A DNA stretch of 39,584 nucleotides, taken from NCBI GenBank assembly GCA_043820105.1, contig JBDREC010000096.1:1-39584 (forward strand). Reading direction: 5' to 3'. Both the position numbers and the translations under genes were made by a program. How positions within the stretch are numbered: the first letter of the stretch is position 1; each line of letters opens with the position of its first letter. Below, piece after piece: positions 597 to 37,394 of this stretch. The DNA comes from Pseudomonadota bacterium (GTDB lineage: Bacteria; Bdellovibrionota_F; JAHFAK01; JBDREC01). Below the pieces are notes generated by a model that did not search any database, had not been told where the DNA came from, and saw only the letters and a program-made list of their open reading frames with translations.

Positions 597-2792
597 TTAT
601 TTTCTGTTTCTAAAAATCATTGCCCAATCAAAATATAGCTCATTTTCATCAAATCCTCTCATTCCAAAGGACTCTATAGTGCTTCTAATATTGGTTTGAA
701 TAGATGAAAGAGCTTCACTGCTTCCTTGTTTTTTTTCTTCCTCATGATACTTATGTATTCTATTTTTCACATAGTCATTTATTCTTTCAACCTTTACAAT
801 TTCTTTTTTAATCATAATACAATCAGCCAGTTCAATATCAGGGCTAAAACCAGCTGAACGATAAAACTTTGCACATGAAAAATCAGCATCAGTTGTAATT
901 GATGGATTAAAACTAAATCCTGATAAATCAGGCATGCTTTCATCTTCTGTTGAAGCATCTATGGTAAAGCTTTTTTCTTCTATTGAGCCAAAGTTATCAT
1001 CATCTAGACAACTTATATATTCTCTTACCTCTCGATCTCTAGGATAGCATTCCATTGTGGTATATAGCTCTTTCATGTTTCTATTTTGATATGAAAAATA
1101 TTCAATTAATTTACGTTCAACATTAACAATACCATAAAAACTATCACCATTGGAGTTCTTGTAGCCATATTTGTAAACATGTACAAGCTCTTCAAATTTT
1201 TCAATTCTTGAAACTAAATCTTTGATAACAGCTTCTTTTGTATTTTCTTTTAATTTGACACCTGAAAACCCAGCGGTTTTTAACTCTGTTTCAGTTGCTT
1301 TTGCTTCTCCTTCATCAAAATGTTCTGTTCCTGCGATAAGTAAATCAATATTATCCACATCATCTTCTTCGTTGTATTCTTCTTTTCGAGTTCTTTGTAA
1401 TTTTTTGATTGTTTCTTTAGCTATACTTTTTTTCATAGAAATTTCTTCTAATCTTTCATGGTAAAGTTGATATCTTTCAAATAAAAGTGTTGCAACTTTA
1501 TTTCTTCTTTGGCTTGCATTATACAAATAGTTTTCTAGATCTTCATAAGGCGTAATTGTAGACTCATCAAAGTGTCTTTCAAGGGTTTCGATTGTGACAT
1601 AACGACCTTCTTGTAAAGCTACAGTTATCCAGTCTTTTTGATTTTGTGGTATAAAACAGGCAACAAGACCTCCTGAAAGTCCTGCTATAAATCCTGAGAT
1701 CCATCCAATTGCAGCTCCTGGAAGAGATCCTGGTCCTGCGCCAATTAAAGCCCCACCATATGCACCGATTGCTGATCCTGCCCATGCAGCAGTTGACATG
1801 CAAATTACAATTGCCACAAAATCACCACGCAAAATTCTCAAACGCCAGGTGTTGTAAATCCAAGCTTTTCTATGTGAATCGCTTTTCAAAACTATCATTA
1901 GCATATTTTCAAGGATTGTTTTGAAAAGCTGAGCTTTTTTTGTATCGCCATTAAAATTTCCTCTTGTTAAGCTTTTTGCATAGGCTAAAAAATTGGGCCA
2001 TAGTTTTCTTGCCATTGTGCGTTCTTCATTTGATTCTATTAAATATAAGCTTTCTTCCCACAACTGTGCACCAAGTTCCCAGCCCATAAAAGTTACAAGA
2101 GACAGCATGTTTGAGCTCAAGAGTGATTTAAAATTTAATCTTTGCATCAAAATTTGATGTGGAGTTAGTCCTCTTACCTTAGGCATAAGAGCTTGTGCTG
2201 CAAGCTCTTCTTGTGTAAAAAGAATTTCACCGCCAGTATTAGCTAAGACTCTAATCATTTCAGCTGGAGCTCCAAAAATAGTTCCACCTAGCATTGCAGT
2301 ATAGATATCGCCACTATTTAGGAGTTCTCCTGCTGTTTGATTGAGTTCGCTTTTAACATCACTCCAATTCATTGGTTCATTTCCCAAAACTGCGTTTTCA
2401 TGATTGGCTTTTACTATTTCAATTCCCGATAGAATTAATATTAATGTTAAAGTTGTAAAAGTATGCCCCATTGCAGAGCCTGCTTTTTTTAATGCTGAAA
2501 ATGAAATGTTTTTAGTAGTTTGTGCAGCAGAAGTTTCAGCTAGGCTTGTTTTTAAATCAGCTCTTTTTACATCTCTTTCTCTTGGAGACATAAATGGAAG
2601 TTTAGTTATGCTAGGTCTATATTTTGTCCACATTTTAGAGAGAGCATCTCTTGTTGTACCAAAATATGGAGGATTGTATCTGCCTTTAGAATCTAAGCCT
2701 GCATTTGAATATGCAAAATTTGGTAAAAGAAATAGTATTATTATGCCTGTTAATATAATTTTTTTAAATTTTAAAATTCTTGATTTAATCAT
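597..2792 (-). CDS. Exported/membrane hypothetical protein with a glycine-zipper segment
   Basis: 731 aa ORF with a Sec-type signal (IILTGIIILFLLPNFAYS), a glycine zipper (AWAGSAIGAYGGALIGAGPGSLPGAAIGWISGFIAGLSGG) and a charged helical C-terminal half. Confidence 0.75.
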   Translation of the reverse strand: MIKSRILKFKKIILTGIIILFLLPNFAYSNAGLDSKGRYNPPYFGTTRDALSKMWTKYRPSITKLPFMSPRERDVKRADLKTSLAETSAAQTTKNISFSALKKAGSAMGHTFTTLTLILILSGIEIVKANHENAVLGNEPMNWSDVKSELNQTAGELLNSGDIYTAMLGGTIFGAPAEMIRVLANTGGEILFTQEELAAQALMPKVRGLTPHQILMQRLNFKSLLSSNMLSLVTFMGWELGAQLWEESLYLIESNEERTMARKLWPNFLAYAKSLTRGNFNGDTKKAQLFKTILENMLMIVLKSDSHRKAWIYNTWRLRILRGDFVAIVICMSTAAWAGSAIGAYGGALIGAGPGSLPGAAIGWISGFIAGLSGGLVACFIPQNQKDWITVALQEGRYVTIETLERHFDESTITPYEDLENYLYNASQRRNKVATLLFERYQLYHERLEEISMKKSIAKETIKKLQRTRKEEYNEEDDVDNIDLLIAGTEHFDEGEAKATETELKTAGFSGVKLKENTKEAVIKDLVSRIEKFEELVHVYKYGYKNSNGDSFYGIVNVERKLIEYFSYQNRNMKELYTTMECYPRDREVREYISCLDDDNFGSIEEKSFTIDASTEDESMPDLSGFSFNPSITTDADFSCAKFYRSAGFSPDIELADCIMIKKEIVKVERINDYVKNRIHKYHEEEKKQGSSEALSSIQTNIRSTIESFGMRGFDENELYFDWAMIFRNRK

Positions 2793-5482: not shown

Positions 5483-5938
5483 TTACAAATTTACAAGCGG
5501 AATTTCATGTGAATACATTGGACCAAATTCTTCAATCAGTTCAACATAAACTGCCATAAAATCCATGGCTCTTTTAAGTTCAAAATCGTATTTTAAACGC
5601 GGATCATTACTTTCTTCAAACAGGTATCCTTTTTGAAAATCAAGCTCTTCAATTAAGCTAGCTGCTTGTTTTAAAGAAGTTGGAAGATTTATATTATAAT
5701 TCTTTAGGCCCATTTCAAATTGCTTACTTGTATTTTCAAGCATATCCTCAATTTGTCTTTCATATACAATATTTCTATTTTTGTAATCGTTATAGTAATA
5801 ATCTGACATATAAAATGGATATTCTTTTTGTTTCTCTTCTAACTGAGTTTTAAAACTAGGATCAATAAACTCAAAATCAGGAGAAATTCCAAATGGAAAA
5901 CATGAAAAAAATAGTGCGTCCGTCTTACACTTTTCTCT
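5483..5938 (-). pseudogene. Hypothetical protein, probably a 5'-truncated gene remnant
   Basis: The ORF-track start is ATG 5809, but the frame stays open to 5938 (...DALFFSCFPFGISPDFEFIDPSFKTQLEEKQKEYPFYM) with no upstream ATG/GTG/TTG or RBS. No family recognised. Confidence 0.45.
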
Positions 5939-5967: not shown

Positions 5968-5996
5968 TTGAAATGTTTGATTAATATTTGTATGAT
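5968..5996 (+). promoter_or_regulatory. Sigma70-type promoter of the PilZ-SPT operon
   Basis: TTGAAA (5968-5973), 17 nt spacer, TATGAT (5991-5996), 31 nt upstream of ATG 6028. Confidence 0.55.
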
Positions 5997-6027: not shown

Positions 6028-7611
6028 ATGAAAGAATCAAGGCAGCACGAGAGAAAAAAGTTCTTTCCAAATATTAAAGTAAAATCAACTTTGAATCAAA
6101 AATCATATCAAGTAAATAATATTAGCCTTGGTGGTCTCTCATTAACTGGAGATGATAATTTTTCATTAAAAAACATCTATGAATTAGATCTTTTCCTGCC
6201 ATTTACAAAAGAAACAATTAATTTTAAAGGTGAAGTAGTATACAATAGTCAAATTGAAACTGAATTAAATGAAACTGAAAACCAACAACACCTAATAGGA
6301 ATAAAGTTTACTGAAATTGCACACTACAATGAATTACATGATTTTTTCGAAAAATATAATTTAGATCCATATTGTAATTTCCTGGATTATGTTGAAAATG
6401 AAAATGCTTTATCAGATAAAACTGTTTCCAATTTATCAGATGCTCGAAGAGTATTAAAAATAATTAAAAATGATTTAAAAAATGATGTCTATCCATTTCA
6501 TCAGCCAATTGATCAAATTAGTGGTACAAAAGTAATAATTAGAGGTGAGGAAAGGTTAAACTTAGCTTCATATAACTATTTAAGCCTAGGTCAAGATCCT
6601 AGATTCCTTGATGTCATCACAAGTGCAGTCAAAGAATATGGAACAACTGCTAGTGGATCACGATTATTGAGTGGCACTTTTAATCTTCATTTGAAATTAG
6701 AAAAATTAATAGCTGACTATAAACAAACAGAAGCAGCTACAATTTTCTCAAGTGGCTACGTTGCAAATATTTCAACAATATCATCAATAATGGGAAAAAA
6801 GGATTTAATAATTGTGGATAAATTCGACCACATGAGCATACTTGATGGCTGTAAATTGTCTGGATCAACTGTTGTTAAATTTGACCATAATAATCTTGAT
6901 GAACTTGAAGAAATTTTAAAAACATCCCAAGACTATGAAAAGAAGTTAATAATTGTAGATGCTATTTATAGCATGGGTGGTGACATTGCTCCAATTAAAG
7001 AAATTTTAGACTTAAAGAAAAAATATGATGCTTTACTAATGATAGATGAAGCACACGCCTTTGGTATTTTAGGAAAAACAGGAAGAGGACTAAGTGAACA
7101 TTTCAATCTAGATGTTAAAGATATTGATATTTATATGGGAACATTAAGCAAAGCTGTCCCATCTGTTGGCGGATATATTGCAGGCAGCAAGGATCTTGTT
7201 TATTATTTACAACATTCTTCAAATGCTTACATATTCTCAGGCTCATTATCCCCACAAGATGTTGCAGTTTCAACTAAAGCCCTCGAAATTATGAGAAGTG
7301 AACCAGAAAGAATTGAAAAGCTCTGGGAAAATATAAACTTCTTTAAAAAAGGAATACAAGAAATCGGCTTTGATACACAAGAATCAAACAGTGCTATAAT
7401 TCCCGCTGTTATTGGTTTTTCTGAAGAAACATTAAAATTTGCAAAAAGACTCAATGAAAATGGATTATTTGTTTGTTCTGTGACCTATCCAGCTGTGCCT
7501 ATAGATAAATGCATAATAAGGAATTGCGTTCAAACAAATCATTCCAAAGAGGACTTAGAAAAAGCTATTGATATATTTTCAAAAATTGGCAAGGAAATGA
7601 AATTAATTTAA
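6028..7611 (+). CDS. spt: PilZ domain fused to a serine palmitoyltransferase-like PLP alpha-oxoamine synthase
   Basis: N-terminal PilZ motifs RQHER (RxxxR) and NISLGG (D/NxSxxG). AOS motifs NLASYNYLSLG, SGSRLLSGT, HMSILDG, DEAH and GTLSKA (PLP Lys). SYNYL resembles SPT more than BioF (SNDYL) or Kbl (ANNYL). Adjacent to a bCerS-like gene. Confidence 0.8.
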   Translation: MKESRQHERKKFFPNIKVKSTLNQKSYQVNNISLGGLSLTGDDNFSLKNIYELDLFLPFTKETINFKGEVVYNSQIETELNETENQQHLIGIKFTEIAHYNELHDFFEKYNLDPYCNFLDYVENENALSDKTVSNLSDARRVLKIIKNDLKNDVYPFHQPIDQISGTKVIIRGEERLNLASYNYLSLGQDPRFLDVITSAVKEYGTTASGSRLLSGTFNLHLKLEKLIADYKQTEAATIFSSGYVANISTISSIMGKKDLIIVDKFDHMSILDGCKLSGSTVVKFDHNNLDELEEILKTSQDYEKKLIIVDAIYSMGGDIAPIKEILDLKKKYDALLMIDEAHAFGILGKTGRGLSEHFNLDVKDIDIYMGTLSKAVPSVGGYIAGSKDLVYYLQHSSNAYIFSGSLSPQDVAVSTKALEIMRSEPERIEKLWENINFFKKGIQEIGFDTQESNSAIIPAVIGFSEETLKFAKRLNENGLFVCSVTYPAVPIDKCIIRNCVQTNHSKEDLEKAIDIFSKIGKEMKLI

Positions 7612-7628
7612 CTTGAAAACTACAACTT

Positions 7629-9095
7629 ATGTCTAAAAATAATAGAAAACACACAAGATCAATATGTAATCTAGAAATAAATATTAAGGATAATTATTCA
7701 GAAAATAAAATATCTGGAGTATCATTTGATATAAGCGATAATGGATTATTTTTAGAATTAAATTCAAACTTACAATCTCATGAACAATTTAAAGGTAATA
7801 TAATACTACCAAACAATGTTAAGTTAGATTTTTCAGGACAACCGGTTTACTTTAATAACAATGAAGTGAATGAAAAAAACATAAAAAATATTGGTTATGG
7901 CATTTCAATTGAAAATTTAAATCTCAAATCACACAAAGTATTTAAGGAGTTTCTTAGCAGCATAAATCAACAAAATTCAATTGAAACTGTCAATATCCTT
8001 GAAGCGAACACTTCATCTCTATTAAAAAAATTCATTAATTTTCCTTTCCAGCTTTACAACCCTCAAAGTAATTGGATTGCACCTCTAAAAAAAGACCTAA
8101 TTAAACTACTTTCAAAAGATAGTTCTTTTTCAAAACATAGTGAATTAAAATTATTTTTGGCAGTTCATAATAACAAGTTGGTAGGAAGAATAGCAGCTAT
8201 AATCGATCATAATTATAATACTTTCAATAATTCAAATATTGGCTTTTGGGGATTTTATGAATGTATTGGGAACATCAATGTTTCTAATAAGCTTTTTCAA
8301 AATGTAGTTTCTTTTTCGAAAACACGCGGTTTATCAAAAATAGTAGGCCCACTAAATCCTTCATTTAACCATGATTTAGGTTTCCTCAGCAGTGGATATC
8401 CAAATCTTCCAAATATGCAAATGCCTTATAACTTTATATATTATAATAATTTTGCTATCAATTTTGGGTTCAAAAAACTAAAGGATATTTACAGTTATAA
8501 TATTGATATTACAGATAAACTTAGCTCTAAAATCGACAAATTAGATATAGTGAAAGATGATGATATTAAAATCAGATCAATCAACAAAAAAAACTTTTGG
8601 AGTGACGCAAAAATATTAAGGTATTTATTTAACGAAAGCTATTCCGCTGCAAATCATTGGGGTTTTGCGCCTGTTACAGAAGATGAATGGCTTGACCTTG
8701 CAAAGCATTTAAAAGAAATCATGGATTATGATTTAGTTTTAATAGCTGAATACAAATCAAAACCTATTGGTTATTTGATTTGTGTTCCTAACATAAGTGA
8801 AATTTTACACTCTATTAGAGGTTCAATTAGCTTAATTGATATTATTAAATTCCCATTTCAGATGAAAAAAGTTAATAATATAAGAGCATTAAGCATCGGT
8901 GTTTTAAAACCTTATTGGAAAAAGTTTGTTGGTTTAAAACTTCTAAAAGAAGGGGTAACAAGGATAAAGGAAAAAGGTTACTCCACAATGGAATATGGTT
9001 GGGTTTTAGATGATAATTATCCATCTATTTACTTAGCAAAACAATTGAAAGGAAAACTTTCAAATTCTTATAGTGTATATGAACTTGATATTTAA
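7629..9095 (+). CDS. PilZ domain fused to a GNAT-fold bacterial ceramide synthase (bCerS/YghO-like)
   Basis: PilZ motifs RKHTR and DISDNG. Then FINFPFQLY..W, FLA..VGRIAAIID, GFWGFYEC, IVGPLN, PYN..YY, HWGFAP and EYGWVLDDN, the characteristic motif series of the YghO/bCerS double-GNAT family. Confidence 0.8.
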   Translation: MSKNNRKHTRSICNLEINIKDNYSENKISGVSFDISDNGLFLELNSNLQSHEQFKGNIILPNNVKLDFSGQPVYFNNNEVNEKNIKNIGYGISIENLNLKSHKVFKEFLSSINQQNSIETVNILEANTSSLLKKFINFPFQLYNPQSNWIAPLKKDLIKLLSKDSSFSKHSELKLFLAVHNNKLVGRIAAIIDHNYNTFNNSNIGFWGFYECIGNINVSNKLFQNVVSFSKTRGLSKIVGPLNPSFNHDLGFLSSGYPNLPNMQMPYNFIYYNNFAINFGFKKLKDIYSYNIDITDKLSSKIDKLDIVKDDDIKIRSINKKNFWSDAKILRYLFNESYSAANHWGFAPVTEDEWLDLAKHLKEIMDYDLVLIAEYKSKPIGYLICVPNISEILHSIRGSISLIDIIKFPFQMKKVNNIRALSIGVLKPYWKKFVGLKLLKEGVTRIKEKGYSTMEYGWVLDDNYPSIYLAKQLKGKLSNSYSVYELDI

Positions 9096-9119
9096 TTTTT
9101 TGAGAATAGAATAATTTTT

Positions 9120-12100
9120 ATGCTTATTCAATTTTATAGTTTTTCATATTTAATTACATTAATTTGTGGATTCCTTCTCGGGTTTTATATTTTTACTAGG
9201 GAAAAGAACAAGCAAAACATAATATGGGGAATAATGCACCTTGGTGTAGTTTTATGGAGCTTTGGAAGATATATTCAAATAAATACAAACTCTCATCAAA
9301 CTGCTATTTTAGCTTCGCACGTCTTATTAATAGGTTCACTAATAATTTATCCAACATTATTTCATACAACTTTCATTTTTATAAAAAGAGATTTATTAAA
9401 AAAATGGAAAATATTATTAAGTGTGCTCTATGTAAATTCGCTAATATTAATAGCTATTGAATTTTGGGATATATTTAATGGTGGAAACACATTAATTATT
9501 GAAGTTATACCAAAATTAGACTTCAAGTATTATGAAACCTTTGGTGTATTTTTAACATCACATTTAATAGTGCAACTTTTATTTCCAGTCATTGGTATAT
9601 ATGAATTAATAGATTATTACTTAAAAGCTGATAAATCTGAAAAAAATAGAGTTAAGTATTTTTTATTAGCAATAGTGTTTGGCATAGTTGGATCCACAAC
9701 TGTCCTTGGACTATCTTACAATATCCCAATTACACCATTTGGAGTGTTATTAATCCCTCTCTACCTCATCATGATCAGCTTCGCAATCTACAAACATCGC
9801 TTAATGGACATAAATTATTTTGTTTCCAAGTCAGCAAGTTTTATTTTTCTTTTGTTATTATATGTTGTGCCAGTTTTATTAGTAATAATTTATTTAAATA
9901 AATTCCTGTTTAGTGATTCTATTTCTTGGGGAACAGGAACTTTACTCTTTTTAGCTTTGGCGTTGTCTGGATGGGTTATTCCAAAACTAAAACAATGGAC
10001 AGAATCAACAATAAGTAAAAGCTTTTTTAAAAGAAAAATTGAATATGACAGGGTTTTATCACACCTATCACAATTTATAAATTCAACTTTGAATCTTAAA
10101 AATGTAATTACTGAGATAATGGAAAACCTTGAAAGGGTTTTAAAGCCAGAACAATATGCTTTTTATATATATAACGAATCAAAAGATAGTTTTTCTTTGC
10201 AAACAGAACTTAATTTTAAAAAAGAAAGTGAATATAAAAACATATCATGTGATAATCCAATAATTAAATATTTTTTACAAAATACGAATGAAATTTATTT
10301 AGTTGTTGAAGAGGCAATAAGGACTGAACTTTTTAAACAGTTTCAAGATTTAGAAATAGAGAGCAAGAAATTTGGAATGGAAGTAATTTTACCATTAAGA
10401 ACTGAAGGAAGATTAATCGGCTTAATGTCTTTGGGTATGAAAAAGTCAGGTTTTTATTCTGAAGAAGATTTAGACCTATTATTCAGCGTTTCTAACAATG
10501 CAGGAATGGCGATTAACAATGCTATTTCTTACAAAAAGATTGAAGACCTGAGTATAAATCTTGAAAATAAGGTAAAAGAAAGAACTATTGAATTAGAAGA
10601 CGCCTATGACAAACTAAAAGAGCTTGATGAAGTTAAAACAAACTTTCTATCCAACATTTCACATGAACTGCGCACACCGCTCACAGCCATCAGCAATCCG
10701 GTTGAAATGATACTTGCTGGGGATTTGGGTACGATTAATGATGAGGTTTATGATTATTTGGATGTTGTTAAGAATAATGCTTATCGTTTGTTAAGATTAA
10801 TTAATGACCTTTTGGATATTTCTAAACTGGAATCTAATAAGATGGAACTTAAATATTATAAAGTGGCTGTTGTTCCTTATGTTGATTATCTTGTTAAGTC
10901 TATTGAGCCACTTGTGACAAATAAAAACATTACCTTAAAGAAAGATTATCAAATCGATAATTTTGATGAATTTTTTGATCCTAATAAAATTGAAAAGGTC
11001 ATTATTAACTTACTTTCAAATGCCATAAAGTTCACTGATAATGATGGTGAGATCATTATATCCCTTAAAAAAGAAAATGAATCTTTTTGCTTATCAGTTA
11101 AAGATTCTGGCATTGGCATTGATCCCAAAGATCACAACAAAGTTTTTGATCGTTTCAGCCAAGTTGATTCGACTTTTTCTAGAAAGCATGAAGGAACAGG
11201 CATTGGGCTTGCTCTGGTCAAAGAGCTTGTTGAGCTTCATAAGGGTAAAATTTCGCTTGCTAGTGATATTGGCAAAGGATCTACATTCACTGTTGAGCTT
11301 CCTAGAGTTAATCAGGATGAAATAACTGTTTGGACAGAATATGCAATTGATGATACTGACAGGCGAAAAGAAGAAAGAAGAAAAAATTATGATCGCCGTT
11401 TAAATGACAGGCGTGATAATGAAGACAGACGTGTTGCAACTAGCAAAGAAAATCTTTTAAAAGCAGTAATGGCTGAAAAAGGCTTGTCAAATATTGACAA
11501 AGAAAAGGAAAGCTTAAAACTTACAAAGCATATTAAAATCTTAGAAGGCCGCCCTAACCTTTTATTAGTTGACGACAACCCAGATATCCTCCGTGTTCTA
11601 ATCACAACTTTAAAAGACGATTACAATATAAGTTTCGCTTTTAATGGTGCAGAAGGTTTTGAAAAACTTAATAATGAAAGATTTGACATTGTGCTTTCTG
11701 ATATCATGATGCCAAAAATGAATGGAATCCAGCTTTGTGAAAAAATAAAACTTGATGATAAGTTAAAATATATTCCAGTAATATTATTAACATCAAAATC
11801 AGACATTGAATCAAAAATTCTTGGATATGAAACAGGTGCTGATGATTATGTTACCAAACCATTTAATGCTAATGAATTAAAAGCCAAAGTCAAAGCACTT
11901 CTAAAACTCAAAATGATAATTGATGAATTCAATCAAAATGAAAGAATGATTTCTGTTGGTCGCCTGGCAGCTGGAATTGCACATGAAATAAACAATCCAC
12001 TGAATTATGTTATTAACAGCATAAGACCATTAAAACAAAATATCGCAGAATTAACTTCTCAAACGGATTTTATTGAAAATGAAGCTAATAAAGAAACTAT

Positions 12101-12704
12101 AACTGATATTTCAAAATGCGTTGATCTAATTAAAGATGGTTGTGAACGCACAATTAAAATTGTCAAAGACCTAAGAATGTTTTCACGAATTGATGAGTCA
12201 GTTTATATTGCTGTATGTGTAAATGAAGGAATCGATTTATCTTTATCATTACTTGAACATTTAACTAAAAGCAAAATCACGATCCACAAAAATTATAGAA
12301 CTAATAATCCTATCTTTTGCTATTCTACATTAATTAATCAAGTGTTCATGAACATTCTAACAAACGCAAGTCAAGCGATCACAGATAATCAGGAAAAAGG
12401 AAACATTTGGATTGAAACATATGAAGAAAATGATTTTACCTATATTAAAATAAAAAATGATGGGCCCAAAATACCTGATGAACTTTTAAAAAGAATCTTT
12501 GATCCCTTTTTTACAACAAAAGAAATCGGTGTTGGCTCAGGTCTTGGTCTTTCAATAAGCCATGGAATAATTGCTAAACATGATGGAAAAATTACAGCCC
12601 AAAACCAAAAAGATGGTGTTTTATTTACAATGAGCTTACCAGCTTTAAAACACAATCCAATAGAAAATCAAAACAAGATTTTATCCCAGGAGGTCAATTT
12701 ATGA
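9120..12704 (+). CDS. Membrane hybrid sensor kinase: 7TM-GAF-HisKA-HATPase-REC-HisKA-HATPase
   Basis: Hydrophobic N-terminus ending FAIYKHRLMDI (HisKA_7TM-like), GAF (LPLRTEGRLIGLMSLG..YSEEDLDLL), H-box SHELRTP, N/G boxes NLLSNAIKF, DSGIGI and GTGIGL, REC (LLVDD, DIMMP, KPF), second H-box AHEINNPL and second HATPase (GSGLGL). Confidence 0.92.
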   Translation: MLIQFYSFSYLITLICGFLLGFYIFTREKNKQNIIWGIMHLGVVLWSFGRYIQINTNSHQTAILASHVLLIGSLIIYPTLFHTTFIFIKRDLLKKWKILLSVLYVNSLILIAIEFWDIFNGGNTLIIEVIPKLDFKYYETFGVFLTSHLIVQLLFPVIGIYELIDYYLKADKSEKNRVKYFLLAIVFGIVGSTTVLGLSYNIPITPFGVLLIPLYLIMISFAIYKHRLMDINYFVSKSASFIFLLLLYVVPVLLVIIYLNKFLFSDSISWGTGTLLFLALALSGWVIPKLKQWTESTISKSFFKRKIEYDRVLSHLSQFINSTLNLKNVITEIMENLERVLKPEQYAFYIYNESKDSFSLQTELNFKKESEYKNISCDNPIIKYFLQNTNEIYLVVEEAIRTELFKQFQDLEIESKKFGMEVILPLRTEGRLIGLMSLGMKKSGFYSEEDLDLLFSVSNNAGMAINNAISYKKIEDLSINLENKVKERTIELEDAYDKLKELDEVKTNFLSNISHELRTPLTAISNPVEMILAGDLGTINDEVYDYLDVVKNNAYRLLRLINDLLDISKLESNKMELKYYKVAVVPYVDYLVKSIEPLVTNKNITLKKDYQIDNFDEFFDPNKIEKVIINLLSNAIKFTDNDGEIIISLKKENESFCLSVKDSGIGIDPKDHNKVFDRFSQVDSTFSRKHEGTGIGLALVKELVELHKGKISLASDIGKGSTFTVELPRVNQDEITVWTEYAIDDTDRRKEERRKNYDRRLNDRRDNEDRRVATSKENLLKAVMAEKGLSNIDKEKESLKLTKHIKILEGRPNLLLVDDNPDILRVLITTLKDDYNISFAFNGAEGFEKLNNERFDIVLSDIMMPKMNGIQLCEKIKLDDKLKYIPVILLTSKSDIESKILGYETGADDYVTKPFNANELKAKVKALLKLKMIIDEFNQNERMISVGRLAAGIAHEINNPLNYVINSIRPLKQNIAELTSQTDFIENEANKETITDISKCVDLIKDGCERTIKIVKDLRMFSRIDESVYIAVCVNEGIDLSLSLLEHLTKSKITIHKNYRTNNPIFCYSTLINQVFMNILTNASQAITDNQEKGNIWIETYEENDFTYIKIKNDGPKIPDELLKRIFDPFFTTKEIGVGSGLGLSISHGIIAKHDGKITAQNQKDGVLFTMSLPALKHNPIENQNKILSQEVNL

Positions 12705-13870
12705 ACGATTTAGATTATAAGGATTATCGAGTAATTATTGTTGATGATGAGAGTGGAAACCTTGAATCTTTTGAGCTATGTTATAAAAAAACTTTTAATG
12801 TTATTACGTGTGATAATGCCACTACTGCTCTTGAAAAAGTTAAGGCATATGATAATGTAGCATGTGTTGTTTCTGATCAAAGAATGCCAGACATTTCAGG
12901 GATTGAACTCTTAGCAAAGGTTAAAGAAATCAATCCATCTATTCAAAGATTTATAATCACAGGATATTCAGACATCTCTGTATGTATTGAAGGTATAAAC
13001 AATGGCCTCATTAATAAATATTTTCAAAAACCTTATGATGTTGAAAATCTTGAAAGTGAGATAAAAGGTGCTATTTATACATACTTAAAAAAGATAGAAA
13101 ATGAAAAACTAACAACGCTTTTAATGGAAAAAGTAAGTCAACTAGTAAAACTTAAAAATCAAGGTTCAGACGAAGATGTTAATACTTTAATTAATTCTTT
13201 AGTATCAGAAGTTTCAGCGTTTGAAGAATTTTCAAAGATTGACCAGTTAGAAGAGAATAATATTAATAATAAAGAAGATATAAATACACAAAACGCAAAA
13301 GCAAGTTTCTTTTCTGAAGAAGTAATGGATTTAATAAGGACAAAAGAAGACAAATCCTATGTGAAAATACTAATTTTAAACCCATCTAATTATAAGGAAA
13401 TCGTTAATTTCTGTGATATGCACCATGAAACTTTATCAAACTATTCCTTAGTTTTTGAAATTATAAGTTCTGATGAAAACATTATTCAAGCAAGCAAAAA
13501 ATGCTTTCATGAATGCCAAAGCAAATATAATCTCAATATAACCGTCAAAACAAAGCTTCAACAGCTGAAGGATGTTCTCAATTCAGGCTTAAATGATCTT
13601 TTTGATATTATTTATGTACCATATTTATATAATCATTTTTCCACACCTGTTGCTAAATTCATAACAAATCAACTCCTGCTAGGTCTTTTTGTAAATGGAA
13701 AACTAGTATTTTCCAATTATTCTCATGCTTGTTCAAACACTGCAGATCCACAAAGAGTTGTAGTAAGAACTGAGGCTGATATTAATGATCTTTTAGAAAT
13801 AGCTGATGAAGCACCAAAGATAATTGTCGATAATTCTAGCAATATTATTTTTGCTTCTATAAAAAAATAA
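12701..13870 (+). CDS. Response regulator with a C-terminal degenerate class I SAM-methyltransferase-like domain
   Basis: REC motifs IIVDDE, SDQRMP, ITGY and KPY. C-terminal KILILNPS...FDIIYVPYLYNHFS...LFVNGKLVFSNY follows the class I MTase layout but lacks the Gly-rich motif I. ATGA overlap with the kinase stop codon. Confidence 0.8.
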   Translation: MNDLDYKDYRVIIVDDESGNLESFELCYKKTFNVITCDNATTALEKVKAYDNVACVVSDQRMPDISGIELLAKVKEINPSIQRFIITGYSDISVCIEGINNGLINKYFQKPYDVENLESEIKGAIYTYLKKIENEKLTTLLMEKVSQLVKLKNQGSDEDVNTLINSLVSEVSAFEEFSKIDQLEENNINNKEDINTQNAKASFFSEEVMDLIRTKEDKSYVKILILNPSNYKEIVNFCDMHHETLSNYSLVFEIISSDENIIQASKKCFHECQSKYNLNITVKTKLQQLKDVLNSGLNDLFDIIYVPYLYNHFSTPVAKFITNQLLLGLFVNGKLVFSNYSHACSNTADPQRVVVRTEADINDLLEIADEAPKIIVDNSSNIIFASIKK

Positions 13871-13878
13871 TTGATATT

Positions 13879-16449
13879 CTATCTTCCACTATACCTTCCA
13901 CAATGAAATTCCACTCTAAAGGTATCAACATTATTATCTTCCCTCTGAGAAAAGGCCGTTATATTTGCAATAAAAGAAGGTTTTTGGCCCGCTTTTACAA
14001 CAACAGTAAATAGGCCTTCTTGTCTCAAATTTTGCACTCCATTACTTACGTATTCTTGCTGTGCCCAATTCATATTAGAAACTCGATATACTTGATTATC
14101 AAATAAAACTGAATTTTGCTGGAGCCAATAATCATAGTTTCCTTTTTTTCCTAATACACTACCATAGTGTTTATTTATTGTAGACTTTGAAAATCCAGTC
14201 TGCTGTACAAAAAGATCAGTTAAAGACTCAACTTTATATTCAGCGGCCATTTGAGAACTCAAAGGACAATATCTTTTTAAGAAATTCATTAAAGATTTAT
14301 CTATTCCAGATGGTCTATATTGAACACTTGCACCTGCTTCTTCTTCATTATCATCACCTTCCTCAGCATTTTGTTCATCTTGATTTTCCTCTCCTAGCTC
14401 AAGTTCGGGTTCGGGTGTTAGCTCAAAGTCATCTTCATCTTCTAAGACTTCTTTTATTTCTCCTTCCTGAGGTTCTAAAACTTCCAAGACTTCTTCAGGT
14501 TCTTGAGGCTCTACATTCATTACTTCTTGAATTACTTGTTCAACTTCATCATCAACATCCCCTGGAACTTCTTGACCTTCAAGCCCATCCCAAACCGACT
14601 CATTTCCCTCAAGCCTTTCAAGCACATCTTCATTTTCAATTTCTAAATCATCCTGAACATCATCTAATTCTTCTTCATCTAAAACCTTTTCGTCTTCAAA
14701 ATTTTCATATGACATAATTTTTAAAAGTTTATTTTTAAAACTTTTTTTGTATAATCTAGATTCTTCAAGCAAAGCTTCTTTTTTATTTGTTGATATCTTA
14801 ATAAGATAATTATCCATAGTAGCGATTTTTAACAAGCTGCGTGCAGTTACATTATATTCAACAAGAATCCTTCTTCCTTCCATATTTAAAAGAACCTCTT
14901 CTTGCATCAAAACATTAATAAGATCATCATAACGTCTTGGAGGATAGTTTTCAGGATCAATTACTCTAATATCTGCATAAAAAAGATCAATATACTGCTC
15001 AGCTCTTTTTTCCCCATATACATCAAGATCACTGCTACCAAATTGACCTCTTTTCTTGTATATTAAAAGATAATTTTCCCAAGCTTCTATGGCAGCACTA
15101 TCATTTTCTTTAATTGCAGTTAAAAATCTTTTAAGATGTGGTCTATTTAATTTTGAAATTTGCTTATAAACAGAAGCTTGTTTCGCTTTTTTACTCAACT
15201 CTGCTTCACTTGTAAGATCATCTGTAAAAATTTCACTTATAATAGTTGTCATTACAACAGGATCACTTTTGAAAGATGAATAAAAACTTGAAAAACAAAT
15301 ATCATTATTAACATTAGATTCTACATTACATAGAGCAATTATTTTCTTTTTACCATCTTCATCATTTAAAACAAGTTTTGCACCGTCAAAACATAAAGCA
15401 AGTTTATCTTTACTATCACTTGTTGAAATGCAATTTCTAAATCCCTTACTTGCAAATTGATTATTATCATTTCCAGAATAAGCATTTTCCAATGCTTCCA
15501 GGTATTTTGCTTCGACCTTATTAAGATGATTAATATTTGAGAAATCAAGCTTTGCAAATTCTTTGGAAATCCTTTCAAAATCACTATCTAAAATTGAATC
15601 TATTTCTCTTCTATATGCGGCTTCTTCAAAACTTAACATCTCTCCTTTATATTCTTCCATACATGCTTGTTCTAAAGATTTGTCAAAATTACTAAGCTTC
15701 TCGTCAAGATATCTAAGCCCATCTTCAACATAATGACAACTTTTATAATAATAACTTTCTTTTTCCGCTGCAACAAGTTTACCATTAAGTTTAAGTACAG
15801 TTAGCTCAGCGACATTTCTTCCACCTTTAATTATTTTTATTTTGCCATCACTTAACTTATAAGCCAAATCATATTCAATTTGCATATCATCAATAGCTAA
15901 AGTAGCGGCTATTGGTGGTGGATCCAGGAGTGTTTTATACTGTTTTTGTCCTTCCAAAGCTCTCCATATTTTAAGCTTATTATCTTCCAAATAAGCATTT
16001 ATTTCAACAATAACATCTGGAGCCATTTCAGCATCTATATCTAAACCATCTGCAACATTCATAATTTGAGCATCATTTAATGAATTTGAAGAGTTTTTTA
16101 AACAGTATTGTTTTCTATTTTTATGAATTTTTTCAGATTCCTTGAGCAGATATTGAAACATGCTTTCTCTACAATTTTCATATCTTTCATTATCAATATT
16201 TTTTAAAGGTTTTGCATCTGAAAATATATAATACCAATCAACATCTACATTATTATTCTTATCTAATTTATAAATGCCTTTTTTCTTTGCCTCTTGAGTA
16301 CATTCATAATTAGGACCTAAAATTCCCTTATATGGTTTCCTTGTATTTGCAAATAATGTATTTAAACTTAAAATAAGAATAATTAAGATTATAAATAAAA
16401 ACTTGCATCTAAGGCAATTAATTTTGTTTGGTTTTAATTTAAAACACAT
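13879..16449 (-). CDS. Large secreted hypothetical protein with a long acidic linker
   Basis: 856 aa ORF with a signal-like segment (FLFIILIILILSLNTLFA), several Cys, and a roughly 125 aa Glu/Asp-rich low-complexity tract before a C-terminal globular domain. Confidence 0.75.
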   Translation of the reverse strand: MCFKLKPNKINCLRCKFLFIILIILILSLNTLFANTRKPYKGILGPNYECTQEAKKKGIYKLDKNNNVDVDWYYIFSDAKPLKNIDNERYENCRESMFQYLLKESEKIHKNRKQYCLKNSSNSLNDAQIMNVADGLDIDAEMAPDVIVEINAYLEDNKLKIWRALEGQKQYKTLLDPPPIAATLAIDDMQIEYDLAYKLSDGKIKIIKGGRNVAELTVLKLNGKLVAAEKESYYYKSCHYVEDGLRYLDEKLSNFDKSLEQACMEEYKGEMLSFEEAAYRREIDSILDSDFERISKEFAKLDFSNINHLNKVEAKYLEALENAYSGNDNNQFASKGFRNCISTSDSKDKLALCFDGAKLVLNDEDGKKKIIALCNVESNVNNDICFSSFYSSFKSDPVVMTTIISEIFTDDLTSEAELSKKAKQASVYKQISKLNRPHLKRFLTAIKENDSAAIEAWENYLLIYKKRGQFGSSDLDVYGEKRAEQYIDLFYADIRVIDPENYPPRRYDDLINVLMQEEVLLNMEGRRILVEYNVTARSLLKIATMDNYLIKISTNKKEALLEESRLYKKSFKNKLLKIMSYENFEDEKVLDEEELDDVQDDLEIENEDVLERLEGNESVWDGLEGQEVPGDVDDEVEQVIQEVMNVEPQEPEEVLEVLEPQEGEIKEVLEDEDDFELTPEPELELGEENQDEQNAEEGDDNEEEAGASVQYRPSGIDKSLMNFLKRYCPLSSQMAAEYKVESLTDLFVQQTGFSKSTINKHYGSVLGKKGNYDYWLQQNSVLFDNQVYRVSNMNWAQQEYVSNGVQNLRQEGLFTVVVKAGQKPSFIANITAFSQREDNNVDTFRVEFHCGRYSGR

Positions 16450-17874: not shown

Positions 17875-19287
17875 TTACTCAAATCTCGAATTAACAACAT
17901 TATTCTTCTTAGATCCAAACTCATAAGCAATAAAGAAGGACCCACTAGCTTCCCAGGTTGTTGCTGTTGCTGAACTTCTTAGCAAAAGTTCTTCTTCAGT
18001 TAGTTCACCCTTTGCTAAATAAACCTGATCCCTGATATAATCAAATGATCCTGAAATCCCAAAGGAAAAACCATTACCAAGATTCAATTCAACATAAGGA
18101 TTAAAGCTGGTTCTATATTTTGTAAACTCATCTAAATAATTTGAAGCAGATAAAGTCACTCCCGCATTTCCCCATTGTTTAATCACGCCAAGATTCATCT
18201 GCAGTTGCTGCTGATATAAAACTTCCCAATATTTATCATACACTGTTTCCTCAATATAGTTGGAATATATTCCCATAACTGAATAAAGAAAAGAGAACCT
18301 CTTTTCCTGAGAATCAGCATATTTAAAAACATTGTACTCAATGGCTGGTCCCAGCCCTGCCATATAATCAATATTCTTGTAAGTAGATCTGTAAGCTCCA
18401 CTACTAAAACCTAATGAAAAATGATCATCAAGTCCCCAAACAAATAAGTTGGAAAGATTTAACCAGTTATAGGAGTTTTTCAGGGTCTCATCACTATCCT
18501 CATAGGAATAGATGGTCTCAGAAAAAGCTCCTGAAAGTGCTAGAATTATTTTATTCAGTTCTGTTACTCTTTGCGCAGTAAAAGAGCCTGATGTTTCATA
18601 ATATTTATACAAAGATTCCGCGTAAAATTCACCCCCAAGTTCAGCCTTAAATACCCATGAATCCCATTGATCATCGAGCTCTTCTGCTTTTTCAGGAAAC
18701 TTGTATTTAAGCTCAATATATTTAGCAAGTGGTGTTACCAGGTAAAACGTCGCCAGACCTTTTTTTATGTATTGGGCGATATCAGAGCGTTCACAATCAT
18801 CAGACAAAGTATTGGCTATAAAGAATTTTAATTCAAACTCTTCAATTCCATTTTTCTTCAACGGAATAAATTTCAAAACGTATTCAATGCTGGCAGCAGC
18901 ATTTTGCGTAAGTACCATAATAAAAACATCTGCTGCATCCTTTGTTAGAACCCAATTCACAAATTTCACATTTCCTCTTAAATAGTCATAGCATTTAAAA
19001 CTCTTATCCATGTAAACATTAACTTTTTTAAATCCCAATTCATCCTTTTTTTCTTTTTCTAAAGACAGTTCTTTATTTGGAATAATTTCTTCGAAAACTT
19101 CATTGCCGGTTTTTCCTTCTAAAACATTTTGTGCTAAAAGTGTCTCATCAGATACTTCAACCTTCTCCTTTGTTTCCATGCTTTCCTTATTTTCTTCTTC
19201 TAAAGAAAATAATGTGGTTTGAATAAATATAGTAATGAGTATAATGGCTAAGCTTGCCTTTAATTCCTTTTGATATCTGGTTTTCAT
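17875..19287 (-). CDS. Probable outer-membrane beta-barrel protein
   Basis: Start reassigned to ATG 19287 (GGAGG at 19296-19300). Signal peptide, alternating aromatic/hydrophobic beta strands in the C-terminal ~260 aa, ending FIAYEFGSKKNNVVNSRFE. Confidence 0.7.
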   Translation of the reverse strand: MKTRYQKELKASLAIILITIFIQTTLFSLEEENKESMETKEKVEVSDETLLAQNVLEGKTGNEVFEEIIPNKELSLEKEKKDELGFKKVNVYMDKSFKCYDYLRGNVKFVNWVLTKDAADVFIMVLTQNAAASIEYVLKFIPLKKNGIEEFELKFFIANTLSDDCERSDIAQYIKKGLATFYLVTPLAKYIELKYKFPEKAEELDDQWDSWVFKAELGGEFYAESLYKYYETSGSFTAQRVTELNKIILALSGAFSETIYSYEDSDETLKNSYNWLNLSNLFVWGLDDHFSLGFSSGAYRSTYKNIDYMAGLGPAIEYNVFKYADSQEKRFSFLYSVMGIYSNYIEETVYDKYWEVLYQQQLQMNLGVIKQWGNAGVTLSASNYLDEFTKYRTSFNPYVELNLGNGFSFGISGSFDYIRDQVYLAKGELTEEELLLRSSATATTWEASGSFFIAYEFGSKKNNVVNSRFE

Positions 19288-19337
19288 CTTAAAAGCCTCC
19301 AAGGTAATCCTTAATTAAATTCTATATGCTTTTCTTT

Positions 19338-20037: not shown

Positions 20038-20066
20038 TTGATTAATTTCTTAAAATCGTGTATAAT
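20038..20066 (+). promoter_or_regulatory. Sigma70-type promoter of the lipoprotein gene
   Basis: TTGATT (20038-20043), 17 nt spacer, TATAAT (20061-20066). Confidence 0.6.
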
Positions 20067-20087
20067 ATAAAGATCTATGGAGGGCAG

Positions 20088-22373
20088 ATGTACATAAAGA
20101 AACTTTTCATTCAAGTAACTTTAATTATTATGTTTTTCACATTATTAGGCTGTTTAAGCAGTGATGATAATAATAATGGTCCTTCTTCCACAACTCAAGG
20201 TTCTGGCGATACAGAGCAAGAAGGTGATCAAACTACAGATGCTGTAGATTCCAACTCTGAAACAGGGATCACTGATAGCAACACAAGTGATAACTTATCC
20301 ACATCCTCCACATCGGATATTGTAGATAGCTTAACTGACACTTCTGGTTCTTTGACATTAGAGGACGCAAGCTATGCAACAATTACAGGAAGCTTTGATG
20401 TGGATACAATTATTACAAGAAATGACCTTGCTTCATATAACATTCTCACCAGAAATGATCTCATTGATGAAGGTATAAATTTAAATAACACAGGTGCAAG
20501 TTCTTTGACTGAAAATTCAGGAATAAAACTATCTCAGGTTGCAAGTGCATCAACTTCAAATGTGCTGATAATTGCAGCTTTTGCCTTTAATAATTTTGAA
20601 ATCGATACCTATGCAACTTTCACATCATCTGATTCAAGTTTTGAGCTTGAACTTGATGAAGCAGCCTTAGGTGGCTTTTTATTAATAAATGTCTATGTGG
20701 CCATTGAAGATGGTGACTCCTATTCATTATATAATACAGGAAGCATTTATATTGATGACTCTTCACCAATGCTTGCATTTTCAAATATAAGCCAAGGAAG
20801 CGAGTTTGATTTAGGAGAATTGATAAATGCAGAAGCAGACAGCAATGAACAGAGAAAATATTACAGCACAAATACTTATGATGCCCTGATACCAGAATCA
20901 GATGAAGAAGATGAGGCCCCCGATTTTACAGCAGCTTCAAAGGTTTTAAAAGATTACACATATGTTGCAGGAAGTGGAGAATATGAAATTGAAATAACAG
21001 CAAGTGACATTAATGGAGATCCTATATTTTTGTATGTCACTGATGCAAGTAGTGATATGAATATTAGTGCAAGTGGCCAGGAAGAAGGCCTGGGTGTTTT
21101 AACATTCACAATAGATACAGCAGATGATGTAGAGGGCGTTTTTTATCCAACTATTGTGGTTACCAATGAAGATGGAAACCTGCAAAATTCAATGGAAATA
21201 GCCATTCACATAATACCTCCTGATGACATTGACCTAGATAATCCTACTAACTTAGCTCCATCTGGAACATCATATTCCTATACAACACCATCTTCCTTCC
21301 CTCGCCTAACAACTTACAGTGCAAGAAAAAACAGACTAATGCTTGCCTGGGATACGAATATTGGGGGTAATAATTTTGGTGTAGCCACAGGCATTGGTTC
21401 ACTTGGTCAGGCAATTCATGATAATATTTATGCAATTTCTCCTTTAGACACTGGAAAACAGCAAGGATTACAAGATATTGATTCTGATGGCTCTAAAATA
21501 GCTTATGGCTTGATTCTATATGAGTATGGACAACGGCTCGTAATAACTGACTCAGATCTAAATATAGAAGTGAGCCAGGACTTTTTAATAAGTGAGGCAA
21601 CAGGGGTTCTGTGCACTGAGGACCATAAGGTCACAGTTAATAACAATGGAACAGGAATCTTTGCCTGGGGTGAATGGACAAATGATGAATATTGCATTGG
21701 TTATGCTGACCAAATAGCATATGTTGTGTTTGATATTAACTCAGGTGAATTTGGTGAAAGGCAAGTGCTGCAAATTGATCAAGCCTTACCTACTTTAGCA
21801 CATGATATGGATATAAGCCTATTAGACGATAATACAGTTGGAATCACAGGTATTGTCCATAATGAACAAAATGGCTGGATAACAGGGACCCTTGAAAATG
21901 GAAGCATAACAAATGCAACAACAAGATATATAGATAGTGTTAACTGTGTTGAAACAGCTACTGTAATTACAGATCTATATAATGGAAAATATTTTGTAAT
22001 TGTTTATAGAATAAACAATTATGCTGCTGGTTATTGGATGTTTTATAGAGTTTTCAATAGCTCTGGACAATCAATAACAACTCAAGGAACTAACATTCTT
22101 GAAGGAGAAGCCATAAGAGCTGATATCTATGCTACAACAGATGCTCATGGAAGAATCCTGGTTGTTTGGGGTCAGGGTGAGCTCGAAGGAAGTGCACACT
22201 ATTATGCCCAAAGATGGCTTCCTGACGCTAGAGAAATAGACGATGAACCATTTCAGGTATCTGATAATCCAGGCACTGTTTTTCATGTTGAAGCTGCCTT
22301 TTATGGAAATGGTGCTTTTGCAGTTGCTTATTTGATGAGGTGGGATGCAAATTATTTAAAACTGTTTAAATAG
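20088..22373 (+). CDS. Surface lipoprotein: S/T/D-rich linker, Ig/cadherin-like module, C-terminal beta-rich (propeller-like) domain
   Basis: Start reassigned to ATG 20088 (GGAGG at 20079-20083). Lipobox LLGC, low-complexity SSDDNNNGPSSTTQ... linker, EAPDF...ITASDINGDPI cadherin-like pattern, repeated 'I/VxxW' blades. Confidence 0.75.
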   Translation: MYIKKLFIQVTLIIMFFTLLGCLSSDDNNNGPSSTTQGSGDTEQEGDQTTDAVDSNSETGITDSNTSDNLSTSSTSDIVDSLTDTSGSLTLEDASYATITGSFDVDTIITRNDLASYNILTRNDLIDEGINLNNTGASSLTENSGIKLSQVASASTSNVLIIAAFAFNNFEIDTYATFTSSDSSFELELDEAALGGFLLINVYVAIEDGDSYSLYNTGSIYIDDSSPMLAFSNISQGSEFDLGELINAEADSNEQRKYYSTNTYDALIPESDEEDEAPDFTAASKVLKDYTYVAGSGEYEIEITASDINGDPIFLYVTDASSDMNISASGQEEGLGVLTFTIDTADDVEGVFYPTIVVTNEDGNLQNSMEIAIHIIPPDDIDLDNPTNLAPSGTSYSYTTPSSFPRLTTYSARKNRLMLAWDTNIGGNNFGVATGIGSLGQAIHDNIYAISPLDTGKQQGLQDIDSDGSKIAYGLILYEYGQRLVITDSDLNIEVSQDFLISEATGVLCTEDHKVTVNNNGTGIFAWGEWTNDEYCIGYADQIAYVVFDINSGEFGERQVLQIDQALPTLAHDMDISLLDDNTVGITGIVHNEQNGWITGTLENGSITNATTRYIDSVNCVETATVITDLYNGKYFVIVYRINNYAAGYWMFYRVFNSSGQSITTQGTNILEGEAIRADIYATTDAHGRILVVWGQGELEGSAHYYAQRWLPDAREIDDEPFQVSDNPGTVFHVEAAFYGNGAFAVAYLMRWDANYLKLFK

Positions 22374-22534
22374 CGCACTGAGTGGCATTCTTTTTGAGAA
22401 AGTTGGACACCACATTTAGCTTATAGATCCACAATTGTCTCAATTTTTCATTATAATCACAATCCTATCCACAGCAGCTACCATCTAACATACTAATCTT
22501 TTTAATCTTTTAATCTTTACATATTTTTTTAATC

Positions 22535-22550
22535 TGGTACAAAGCTTGCA
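22535..22550 (+). promoter_or_regulatory. Sigma54 -24/-12 promoter for the 22575 gene
   Basis: TGGTACAAAGCTTGCA (GG-N10-GC), about 25 nt upstream of the ORF. Confidence 0.65.
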
Positions 22551-22574
22551 TATATTTAGAAAGTTCAAACTATT

Positions 22575-37238: not shown

Positions 37239-37394
37239 AGGTCCCTCCTTAACACAGCGTTTTTAGCTCTAAAAAATATACAATAAGTAAAAACATCATC
37301 AAAAGCTAAAATGCCAAATTCACATATATTATTTCATTATAGTATATTTAACACTAAAGTTCAAGAAAGGTTTCGATTATTAAAAATAATTTTT

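Follow-up and report, generated by a model that had tools for sequence, protein, structure and literature searches.

Why should two enzymes that look suited to the assembly of a lipid each carry a PilZ domain, the receptor for the second messenger cyclic di-GMP (c-di-GMP), and why should both be encoded directly ahead of a membrane sensor kinase? This question is raised by four genes at positions 6028 to 13870 of contig JBDREC010000096.1, which we refer to as the window (the whole stretch of 39,584 nucleotides (nt) that was analyzed). In its assembly, which is 3.8 Mb in size, 93% complete and represents a deep-branching groundwater-type genome, the window is contig C96. A preliminary description of the locus had proposed c-di-GMP-gated synthesis and sensing of a sphingolipid or aminolipid. 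Our own answer, which we rate slightly above an even chance, is that c-di-GMP gates a short lipid-type pathway that is wired to its own membrane sensor. The genes are the following:

6028..7611, + strand: gene 1, PilZ-AOS (P0001, 527 residues), a pyridoxal phosphate-dependent alpha-oxoamine synthase (AOS) with an N-terminal PilZ domain, from domain and homology matches
7629..9095, + strand: gene 2, PilZ-GNAT (P0002, 488 residues), a tandem-GNAT N-acyltransferase of the bCerS-like family, from Pfam, family relationships and a structural model
9120..12704, + strand: gene 3 (P0003, 1194 residues), a membrane sensor and double hybrid histidine kinase, from Pfam and NCBIfam
12701..13870, + strand: gene 4 (P0004, 389 residues), a response regulator with a methyltransferase-like output, from Pfam and structure search

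These open reading frames (ORFs) all lie on the + strand and bear out the four tightly spaced, co-oriented genes of the earlier account, with gaps of 17, 24 and -4 nt. The last of these is an ATGA overlap in which the ATG of gene 4 overlaps the stop codon of gene 3, with AGGAGG upstream of gene 4. A terminator-like site was sought within 6028-13870 and none was seen.

The central evidence comes from other genomes. Among 401 sampled genomes, 111 encode an AOS at E<=1e-100 and at least 99 encode a HisKA_7TM protein. The two adjoin in at least three of the 401 (G000, G272 and G011), and in each case the AOS is a long form, extended at its N-terminus. The survey was extended to the small phyla of G272 and G011 (9 and 7 genomes) and then to a 401-genome phylum sample of an Elusimicrobium locus. 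Among the matches listed, there are 14 long-form AOS loci in 13 genomes from four phylum-level groups, and a membrane GAF sensor is encoded just downstream of the AOS in all 14. A sensor was scored by at least five hydrophobic segments in its first ~260 residues, from a crude Kyte-Doolittle count, followed by a GAF domain. One gene, that of the PilZ-GNAT, stands between AOS and sensor in the window and two do so in L190. Outputs of these sensors vary, with an HD_5 domain (HD-GYP type) at four loci (L136, L160, L161 and L189), GGDEF at three (L164, L165 and L145) and a HATPase_c kinase at seven (the window, L187, L188, L190, two in L191, and L192). L187 and L188 each also contain two genes for a receiver (REC) domain joined to HD_5. 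Of the 14 pairs, Pfam recognizes PilZ in the AOS of 10 and HisKA_7TM in the sensor of 11. Long-form AOS are also seen beyond these surveys, as a word-index search with the G272 protein gave about 22 long-form clusters among its best 120 matches, 16 with PF07238, from sources that include Desantisbacteria, Elusimicrobiota and Endomicrobiales. P0052 and P0054 are further PilZ-AOS fusions.

GNAT genes are absent from the other 13 pairing loci and from the whole of the G272 genome (98% complete). The GNAT lies outside the conserved core, and the core partner of the PilZ-AOS is the sensor. The expectation that this neighborhood would be conserved elsewhere is therefore borne out for the AOS-sensor pair but not for the GNAT gene. 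Unfused AOS from the phylum of G272 (L162 and L163) occur in ordinary clusters of short-chain dehydrogenase/reductase (SDR), AOS and GNAT genes with no sensor. Whether the AOS-sensor pairing was inherited from an ancestor or put together several times, it argues for a functional link. It points to an undescribed connection between c-di-GMP and the synthesis of a lipid or signal.

Several of these loci have individual features. L160 (4440-10390) has one PilZ-AOS flanked by two paralogous membrane GAF-HD-GYP sensors. The sensor of L145 (9016-11817, in G011) is fragmented, with an in-frame stop in HisKA_7TM, a frame change to GAF and a separate GGDEF ORF; it may have decayed to a pseudogene or reflect faulty assembly. 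L190 (264-5697, from the Elusimicrobiota-phylum sample) encodes a PilZ-AOS, a class I S-adenosylmethionine (SAM) methyltransferase, an adh_short reductase and then a GAF kinase; from their sequences, the methyltransferase and the adh_short protein look like tailoring steps for an amino ketone.

The two enzymes of the window are composed of the following domains:

6037..6321, + strand: PilZ domain of gene 1 (residues 4-98) with RQHER and NISLGG, Pfam PF07238
6478..7608, + strand: AOS catalytic domain of gene 1 (residues ~151-527), from structure relatives and NCBIfam
7641..7955, + strand: PilZ domain of gene 2 (residues 5-109) with RKHTR and DISDNG, Pfam, 31.2 bits against a cut-off of 22.5
7986..9092, + strand: tandem-GNAT core of gene 2 (residues ~120-488), from predicted structure and family alignment

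That both enzymes carry PilZ was asserted at the outset and is confirmed. PF07238 scores 30.0 bits on gene 1 (cut-off 22.5), and both domains keep RxxxR and (D/N)xSxxG, which are the PilZ binding motifs, at a spacing of ~25 residues. These intact motifs, together with eight GGDEF matches over cut-off in the host genome, agree with the c-di-GMP control that had been claimed, with binding itself being predicted. As both enzymes have an N-terminal PilZ domain with intact motifs, both steps would be expected to respond to c-di-GMP.

Gene 1 is, as judged from its sequence, an AOS that is not a canonical serine palmitoyltransferase (SPT, or Spt). The Aminotran_1_2 family matches residues 177-515, and the catalytic Lys (GTLSKA), His (DEAH) and Asp (DHMS) align with all reference rows. 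Its initial labeling as SPT-like stands insofar as the closest solved structure is the Sphingobacterium SPT (8guh/3a2b, E 5.9e-91). It falls short in that P0001 lies outside the Spt-like clade and misses the Spt equivalog cut-offs (NF047600, 395 bits versus 640; NF047599, 338 versus 500; NF047603, 282 versus 670). Scores against NCBIfam models are 401 bits for TIGR01825 (BioF/Kbl-family), 395 for SPT-CFB (SerpalmtaseCFB), 382 for bioF and 367 for Kbl, all of which are below cut-off. The AOS linked to GNAT genes are also below the NF047600 cut-off of 640 in 21 of 21 cases tested, yet they favor this model by 71-227 bits. In a tree of 94 rows, P0001 falls in clade A (support 99) with the PilZ-AOS proteins P0052 and P0054 and with unfused proteins of various lineages, among them Atribacteria-type ones. 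Clade B (support 100, 60 rows) comprises the GNAT/SDR-linked AOS, and both clades are apart from Kbl. Neighborhoods of unfused clade A genes (L125, L126 and L139) show no consistent pattern, and a metagenome scan with a motif for the P0001 subclade returned one unrelated Spt-like locus, L166. The host has a Kbl of its own on contig C4 (557 bits versus a cut-off of 460), and its 93%-complete genome has no match over cut-off to bioB, bioD or bioA. A role for gene 1 in biotin or threonine metabolism is therefore unlikely.

Gene 2 is a bCerS-like ACYLTRANSFERASE to which a PilZ domain has been added. A GNAT match (Acetyltransf_1) covers residues 353-471, the core is modeled with a predicted local distance difference test score (pLDDT) that is mostly above 90, and the best solved folds for it are the tandem GNATs MAB_4324, glucosamine N-acetyltransferase and MshD. 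P0002 retains all 7 invariant columns of a 36-sequence family alignment and matches none of the NCBIfam models. Relatives of the core are proteins of 334-401 residues from many phyla (48 word-index matches; 4797 HMMER matches at E<=1e-3), and a search with a 12-row alignment located the family in at least 569 stretches of species genomes. Among the best 80 named genome loci of this family, with a neighborhood of 6 kb, a Spt-like AOS is encoded at 54 and a CerR-like or epimerase-type SDR at 46. Homologs in the sampled genomes give a similar picture, with an AOS adjoining 11 of 18 loci, a NAD-epimerase-type SDR adjoining 7 of 18, and desaturase, CDP-alcohol transferase, PAP2, DAGK-like and other lipid genes nearby. 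We placed P0002 in the bCerS-like family because the family adjoins Spt-like AOS and CerR-like SDR genes, which upholds the original assignment. Membership is thus based on gene context. None of the 80 canonical loci has a PilZ match and none has a 7TM-GAF match. PilZ-GNAT fusions are rare but real, as seen in P0171 (494 residues, 34% identity over the full length) and P0181 (503 residues), both with intact motifs.

Members of the GNAT family are also naturally fused to other domains. AOS-GNAT fusions are found in P0281 and P0283 (780 and 648 residues), a fusion of GNAT to an acyl-activating AMP-binding domain in P0267 (940 residues), a fusion of FA_hydroxylase to GNAT in P0048 (577 residues) and two tandem GNAT copies in P0172 (784 residues).

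What would these two enzymes make? By condensation of an acyl thioester with an amino acid, gene 1 would form an alpha-amino ketone, which gene 2 would then N-acylate. For comparison, the ceramide set of Caulobacter consists of Spt, an N-acyltransferase and a dehydrogenase (PMC11087976, PMC11324152, PMC11334938), and in the published model the keto intermediate is acylated before it is reduced (PMC11087976, PMC11324152). The proposed order of gene 1 and gene 2 matches this acylate-before-reduce order (PMC11087976). A CerR-like reductase was sought in the host genome with seven cluster-linked SDR queries that gave only generic epimerases of at most 74 bits, the best at 26% identity; cluster-linked SDRs elsewhere reach E values down to 1e-88. 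Given this negative result for CerR, the pathway would probably end in an N-acyl amino ketone, a 3-oxo-ceramide-like lipid, which would be kept at the keto level unless a distant reductase acts on it. The proposal of a sphingolipid or ceramide-type product is thus supported by the context of the GNAT family and weakened by the non-Spt clade of the AOS, by the lack of CerR and by the absence of the GNAT from the other 13 loci. A ceramide-type label, as read from sequence, may apply at most to the lineage of the window.

The second half of the operon would encode the sensory arm of this lipid-type pathway. Features of genes 3 and 4 are the following:

9147..9812, + strand: HisKA_7TM membrane sensor region of gene 3 (residues 10-231), Pfam PF16927, 56 bits versus 28.6
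10092..10514, + strand: GAF domain of gene 3 (residues 325-465), GAF_2, 29.6 bits
10635..11306, + strand: first kinase core of gene 3 (HisKA 506-572 and HATPase_c 620-729), Pfam
11355..11444, + strand: Arg-rich linker of gene 3 (~residues 746-775) from the first kinase core to the receiver, five [DE]RR motifs by motif count
11562..11894, + strand: receiver domain of gene 3 (residues 815-925), Response_reg, 93 bits
11922..12659, + strand: second kinase core of gene 3 (~residues 935-1180, HATPase_c_5 at 1072-1173), from second HisKA and HATPase_c stretches
12731..13063, + strand: receiver of gene 4 (residues 11-121), Response_reg, 61.9 bits
13268..13867, + strand: class I methyltransferase-like fold of gene 4 (residues 190-389), ESM Atlas structure search

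Gene 3 is, as first described, a 7TM-GAF twin hybrid kinase with HisKA_7TM, GAF, two kinase cores and REC. Seven hydrophobic 19-mers occur in residues 1-260 of P0003, and an AtoS-like match covers residues 935-1177. Its Arg-rich linker is unusual, as only 2 of 3365 host-genome ORFs of at least 100 residues have three or more [DE]RR within 45 residues. A similar conserved xRR...xRR...xRR...F-x-KC is present in the PilZ-AOS linkers of five proteins of a sensor-linked AOS group described below as clade S (L145, L160, L161, L164 and L165).

Gene 4 had been called a REC-methyltransferase-like protein. Its REC domain is secured by Pfam and the methyltransferase is supported at the level of fold only, but a SAM motif and a Pfam methyltransferase match are both missing. 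The REC and linker have as their top match a REC-HD-GYP "NosR family" model that extends over residues 11-172 only. The ESM Atlas model of the C-terminus leads to class I methyltransferase clusters with template modeling (TM) scores of 0.77-0.85 by query, some of these clusters being fused to PilZ or cyclic nucleotide monophosphate-binding domains; a single-sequence model of P0004 is poor (pLDDT 50). Pfam gave no methyltransferase match on the C-terminus even at E<=10. The glycine-rich SAM motif I is absent by eye, the first strand being VKILILNPSNY with no GxGxG. REC-HD-GYP proteins accompany HisKA_7TM kinases at L167, L168, L187 and L188. The structural model suggests that the HD-GYP domain of related regulators has been replaced in gene 4 by a methyltransferase-like domain.

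A search of 101 genomes with the C-terminus of P0004 found only two weak paralogs in its own genome. These are located on contig C49 (L123:571-2088 and L124:643-2085; 480-505 residues), have weak methyltransferase Pfam matches, and are each followed immediately by a gene that encodes an adenylate/guanylate cyclase domain. In two related genomes (L167:6467-11154 and L168:5492-10155), a REC-HD-GYP regulator adjoins an 1185-residue HisKA_7TM-PAS-kinase that has a Response_reg match in three stretches, with no AOS nearby.

Gene 3 would thus provide a seven-helix membrane and GAF sensor with gene 4 as its receiver protein, the two being a lineage-specific form of the sensor that accompanies the PilZ-AOS. 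Because most paired sensors either make or break c-di-GMP or adjoin REC-HD-GYP genes, the simplest logic is that the sensor sets c-di-GMP. Control would then run from the membrane/GAF input to the level of c-di-GMP, from there to PilZ and finally to enzyme activity. In the window, the output would now be a phosphorelay ending in the methyltransferase-like domain, which may or may not be tied to c-di-GMP.

A number of observations weigh against this reading. The output of P0003 has no c-di-GMP turnover domain and gene 4 has no HD-GYP domain, which makes any link between this kinase and c-di-GMP putative. Four of the 14 long-form AOS give no PilZ match with Pfam. P0001 shows no preference among the BioF/Kbl-family, SPT, bioF and Kbl models, which is compatible with a range of amino-acid and acyl substrates, and it is outside clade B, the GNAT/CerR-linked Spt-like clade. 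It is also outside clade S (support 98), which holds the six sensor-linked PilZ-AOS that are in the tree; a constraint that unites all nine PilZ-type AOS lowers the log-likelihood by 47 units and is not rejected (p-AU 0.179), in a tree that left out seven proteins of the Elusimicrobiota sample. The 7TM-GAF parts of AOS-linked sensors do not form one clade: their individual neighbors in the tree are other HisKA_7TM-GAF proteins, and long branches separate P0003 from the rest. Finally, close relatives of the host are few (two genomes of the same order and one of the same class among 40 sampled), and in the three closest genomes, G001-G003, there is neither a GNAT homolog nor an AOS match at E<=1e-100.

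The alternative that survives best is a closed loop in which the lipid product of genes 1 and 2 (in other lineages, of the AOS by itself) is the ligand of the 7TM/GAF part of the sensor, serving as an autoinducer or homeostat. We regard it as possible but doubtful. Such a loop would resemble the alpha-hydroxyketone quorum-sensing pairs CqsA/CqsS and LqsA/LqsS with c-di-GMP as an extra gate, and it is compatible with our preferred explanation as a feedback arm. Like the window, these systems have a gene for an AOS-family enzyme adjoining that of a polytopic membrane sensor kinase. The 14 loci show a constant input module (multi-pass plus GAF) with outputs that vary among HD-GYP, GGDEF and kinase, as expected if the neighboring enzyme makes the ligand. 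Since the G272 pair occurs without a GNAT genome-wide, the AOS product alone would suffice. The methyltransferase and adh_short genes of L190 resemble a small signal-tailoring cluster. Furthermore, the portions of two reviews that we consulted treat HisKA_7TM as a sensor domain only and name no ligand.

Against a closed loop, outputs that make or break the very ligand of PilZ are more simply explained by control from sensor to enzyme, and GGDEF and HD-GYP are opposite in sign, which a single feedback logic would not predict. The operon has no gene for export or uptake, and ligand binding is purely putative. P0001 was considered as a CqsA/LqsA autoinducer synthase and rejected, as it scores 223 bits on NF005526 versus a cut-off of 428, and solved CqsA chains reach only E 5e-31 with it. 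The analogy with CqsA and LqsA fails as a statement of family membership. In contrast to CqsS, the sensor of the window is of the HisKA_7TM-GAF type, and we know of no PilZ domains or c-di-GMP-turnover outputs in the CqsA/LqsA systems. The earlier suggestion that the sensor reads the product is thus only partly sustained, as the outputs (HD-GYP, GGDEF and the REC-HD-GYP partners) point at least as strongly to a sensor that sets c-di-GMP. Also possible but doubtful is the fuller version, a self-contained c-di-GMP-gated lipid circuit in which the N-acyl amino ketone (oxo-ceramide-like) would be the HisKA_7TM-GAF ligand and would feed back on the messenger or phosphorelay.

A second alternative, that genes 1 and 2 are Spt and bCerS for ordinary bulk membrane sphingolipid synthesis with PilZ added, and that the kinase and regulator are unrelated neighbors, appears improbable to us. 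It would account for the Sphingobacterium SPT as closest solved relative of the AOS, for the clustering of the GNAT family with Spt-like and CerR-like genes, and for canonical clusters that lack a 7TM-GAF protein in 80 of 80 cases. However, the AOS is outside the Spt-like clade with all Spt models below cut-off, the host genome has yielded no CerR-like SDR, pairing of AOS and sensor at 14 of 14 loci cannot be incidental, and gaps of 24 and -4 nt bind genes 2-4 together. Comparison with Spt-bCerS-CerR of Caulobacter crescentus (CC_1162/CC_1154/CC_1164) leads to the same distinction. Both have an AOS followed by a ~370-residue N-acyltransferase, but in the window PilZ is on both enzymes, whereas it is on none of the 80 canonical loci, the AOS of the window lies outside the Spt-like clade and below all Spt cut-offs, and no CerR-like gene was found in its genome. 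Highly improbable is the third alternative, in which gene 1 acts like BioF or Kbl in the metabolism of cofactors or amino acids, gene 2 is an unrelated acetyltransferase, and c-di-GMP regulates a small-molecule pathway rather than a lipid. In its favor, TIGR01825 is the top NCBIfam match with bioF at 382 bits, one unfused protein of clade A (P0106) scores over the bioF cut-off, and unfused clade A gene contexts are uninformative. Against it, the genome gave no match over cut-off to bioB, bioD or bioA and already has Kbl on C4, and the gene 2 family is naturally fused to AOS, acyl-activating and fatty-acid hydroxylase domains.

How does a c-di-GMP-gated lipid-type pathway relate to what is known of this messenger? 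Established targets of c-di-GMP control are polysaccharide synthesis, motility and transcription. In cellulose synthase BcsA and alginate Alg44, PilZ on or beside a biosynthetic enzyme makes the product c-di-GMP-dependent, and a dedicated cyclase or phosphodiesterase is often encoded nearby. In the window, PilZ is instead N-terminal, and it is found on a soluble pyridoxal phosphate-dependent acyl-condensing enzyme and a GNAT acyltransferase rather than on polysaccharide synthases. A PilZ-centered literature search that combined PilZ with oxoamine synthase, serine palmitoyltransferase, sphingolipid and domain architectures found no description of a PilZ-AOS or PilZ-GNAT, in line with the initial view that no system of this architecture has been described. 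New features of the window are that a second enzyme, the bCerS-like GNAT, also has a PilZ domain, that the sensor has a double hybrid kinase as output and a REC-methyltransferase-like protein as partner, and that its AOS is of a different clade.

PilZ domains on acyl-condensing and N-acylating enzymes would extend c-di-GMP to the synthesis of lipids or lipid signals. The window is the richest version seen, and PilZ on both of its steps raises the prospect that c-di-GMP coordinates two consecutive enzymes. For the widespread HisKA_7TM-GAF sensor family, for which the reviews, as far as seen, do not name a ligand, pairing with PilZ-AOS provides a concrete partner enzyme, such that sensor input becomes directly testable. 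If a lipid-ligand circuit were true, it would amount to a membrane homeostat or an autoinducer of ceramide type, and the HisKA_7TM family would for the first time have a ligand assigned to it. Hosts of the module are poorly known and mostly uncultured (Elusimicrobiota, Desantisbacteria and the genome of the window), and signaling biology in them is almost unworked.

As to expression, a sigma70-like promoter had been proposed ahead of gene 1. The hexamers exist, as follows:

5968..5996, + strand: sigma-70-like hexamer pair TTGAAA-17-TATGAT upstream of gene 1, given as a position only

Promoter-like sites in the region number 64 versus 66.6 +/- 9.3 in shuffles, which is chance level, and we do not retain the claim. 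The sequencing runs listed for the genome are three groundwater DNA runs in which its share is small, with no RNA run among them. Surrounding the operon are large ORFs of 475-856 residues that lack any Pfam family. One of these, of 856 residues (13879-16449, - strand), ends 8 nt past gene 4 on the opposite strand; the others are at 597-2792 (-), 17875-19302 (-), 20058-24059 (+) and 35781-39386 (-). Divergent from gene 1 is a 108-residue ORF at 5483-5809 (-) that has a faint PilZN3 match (E 0.045, below cut-off).

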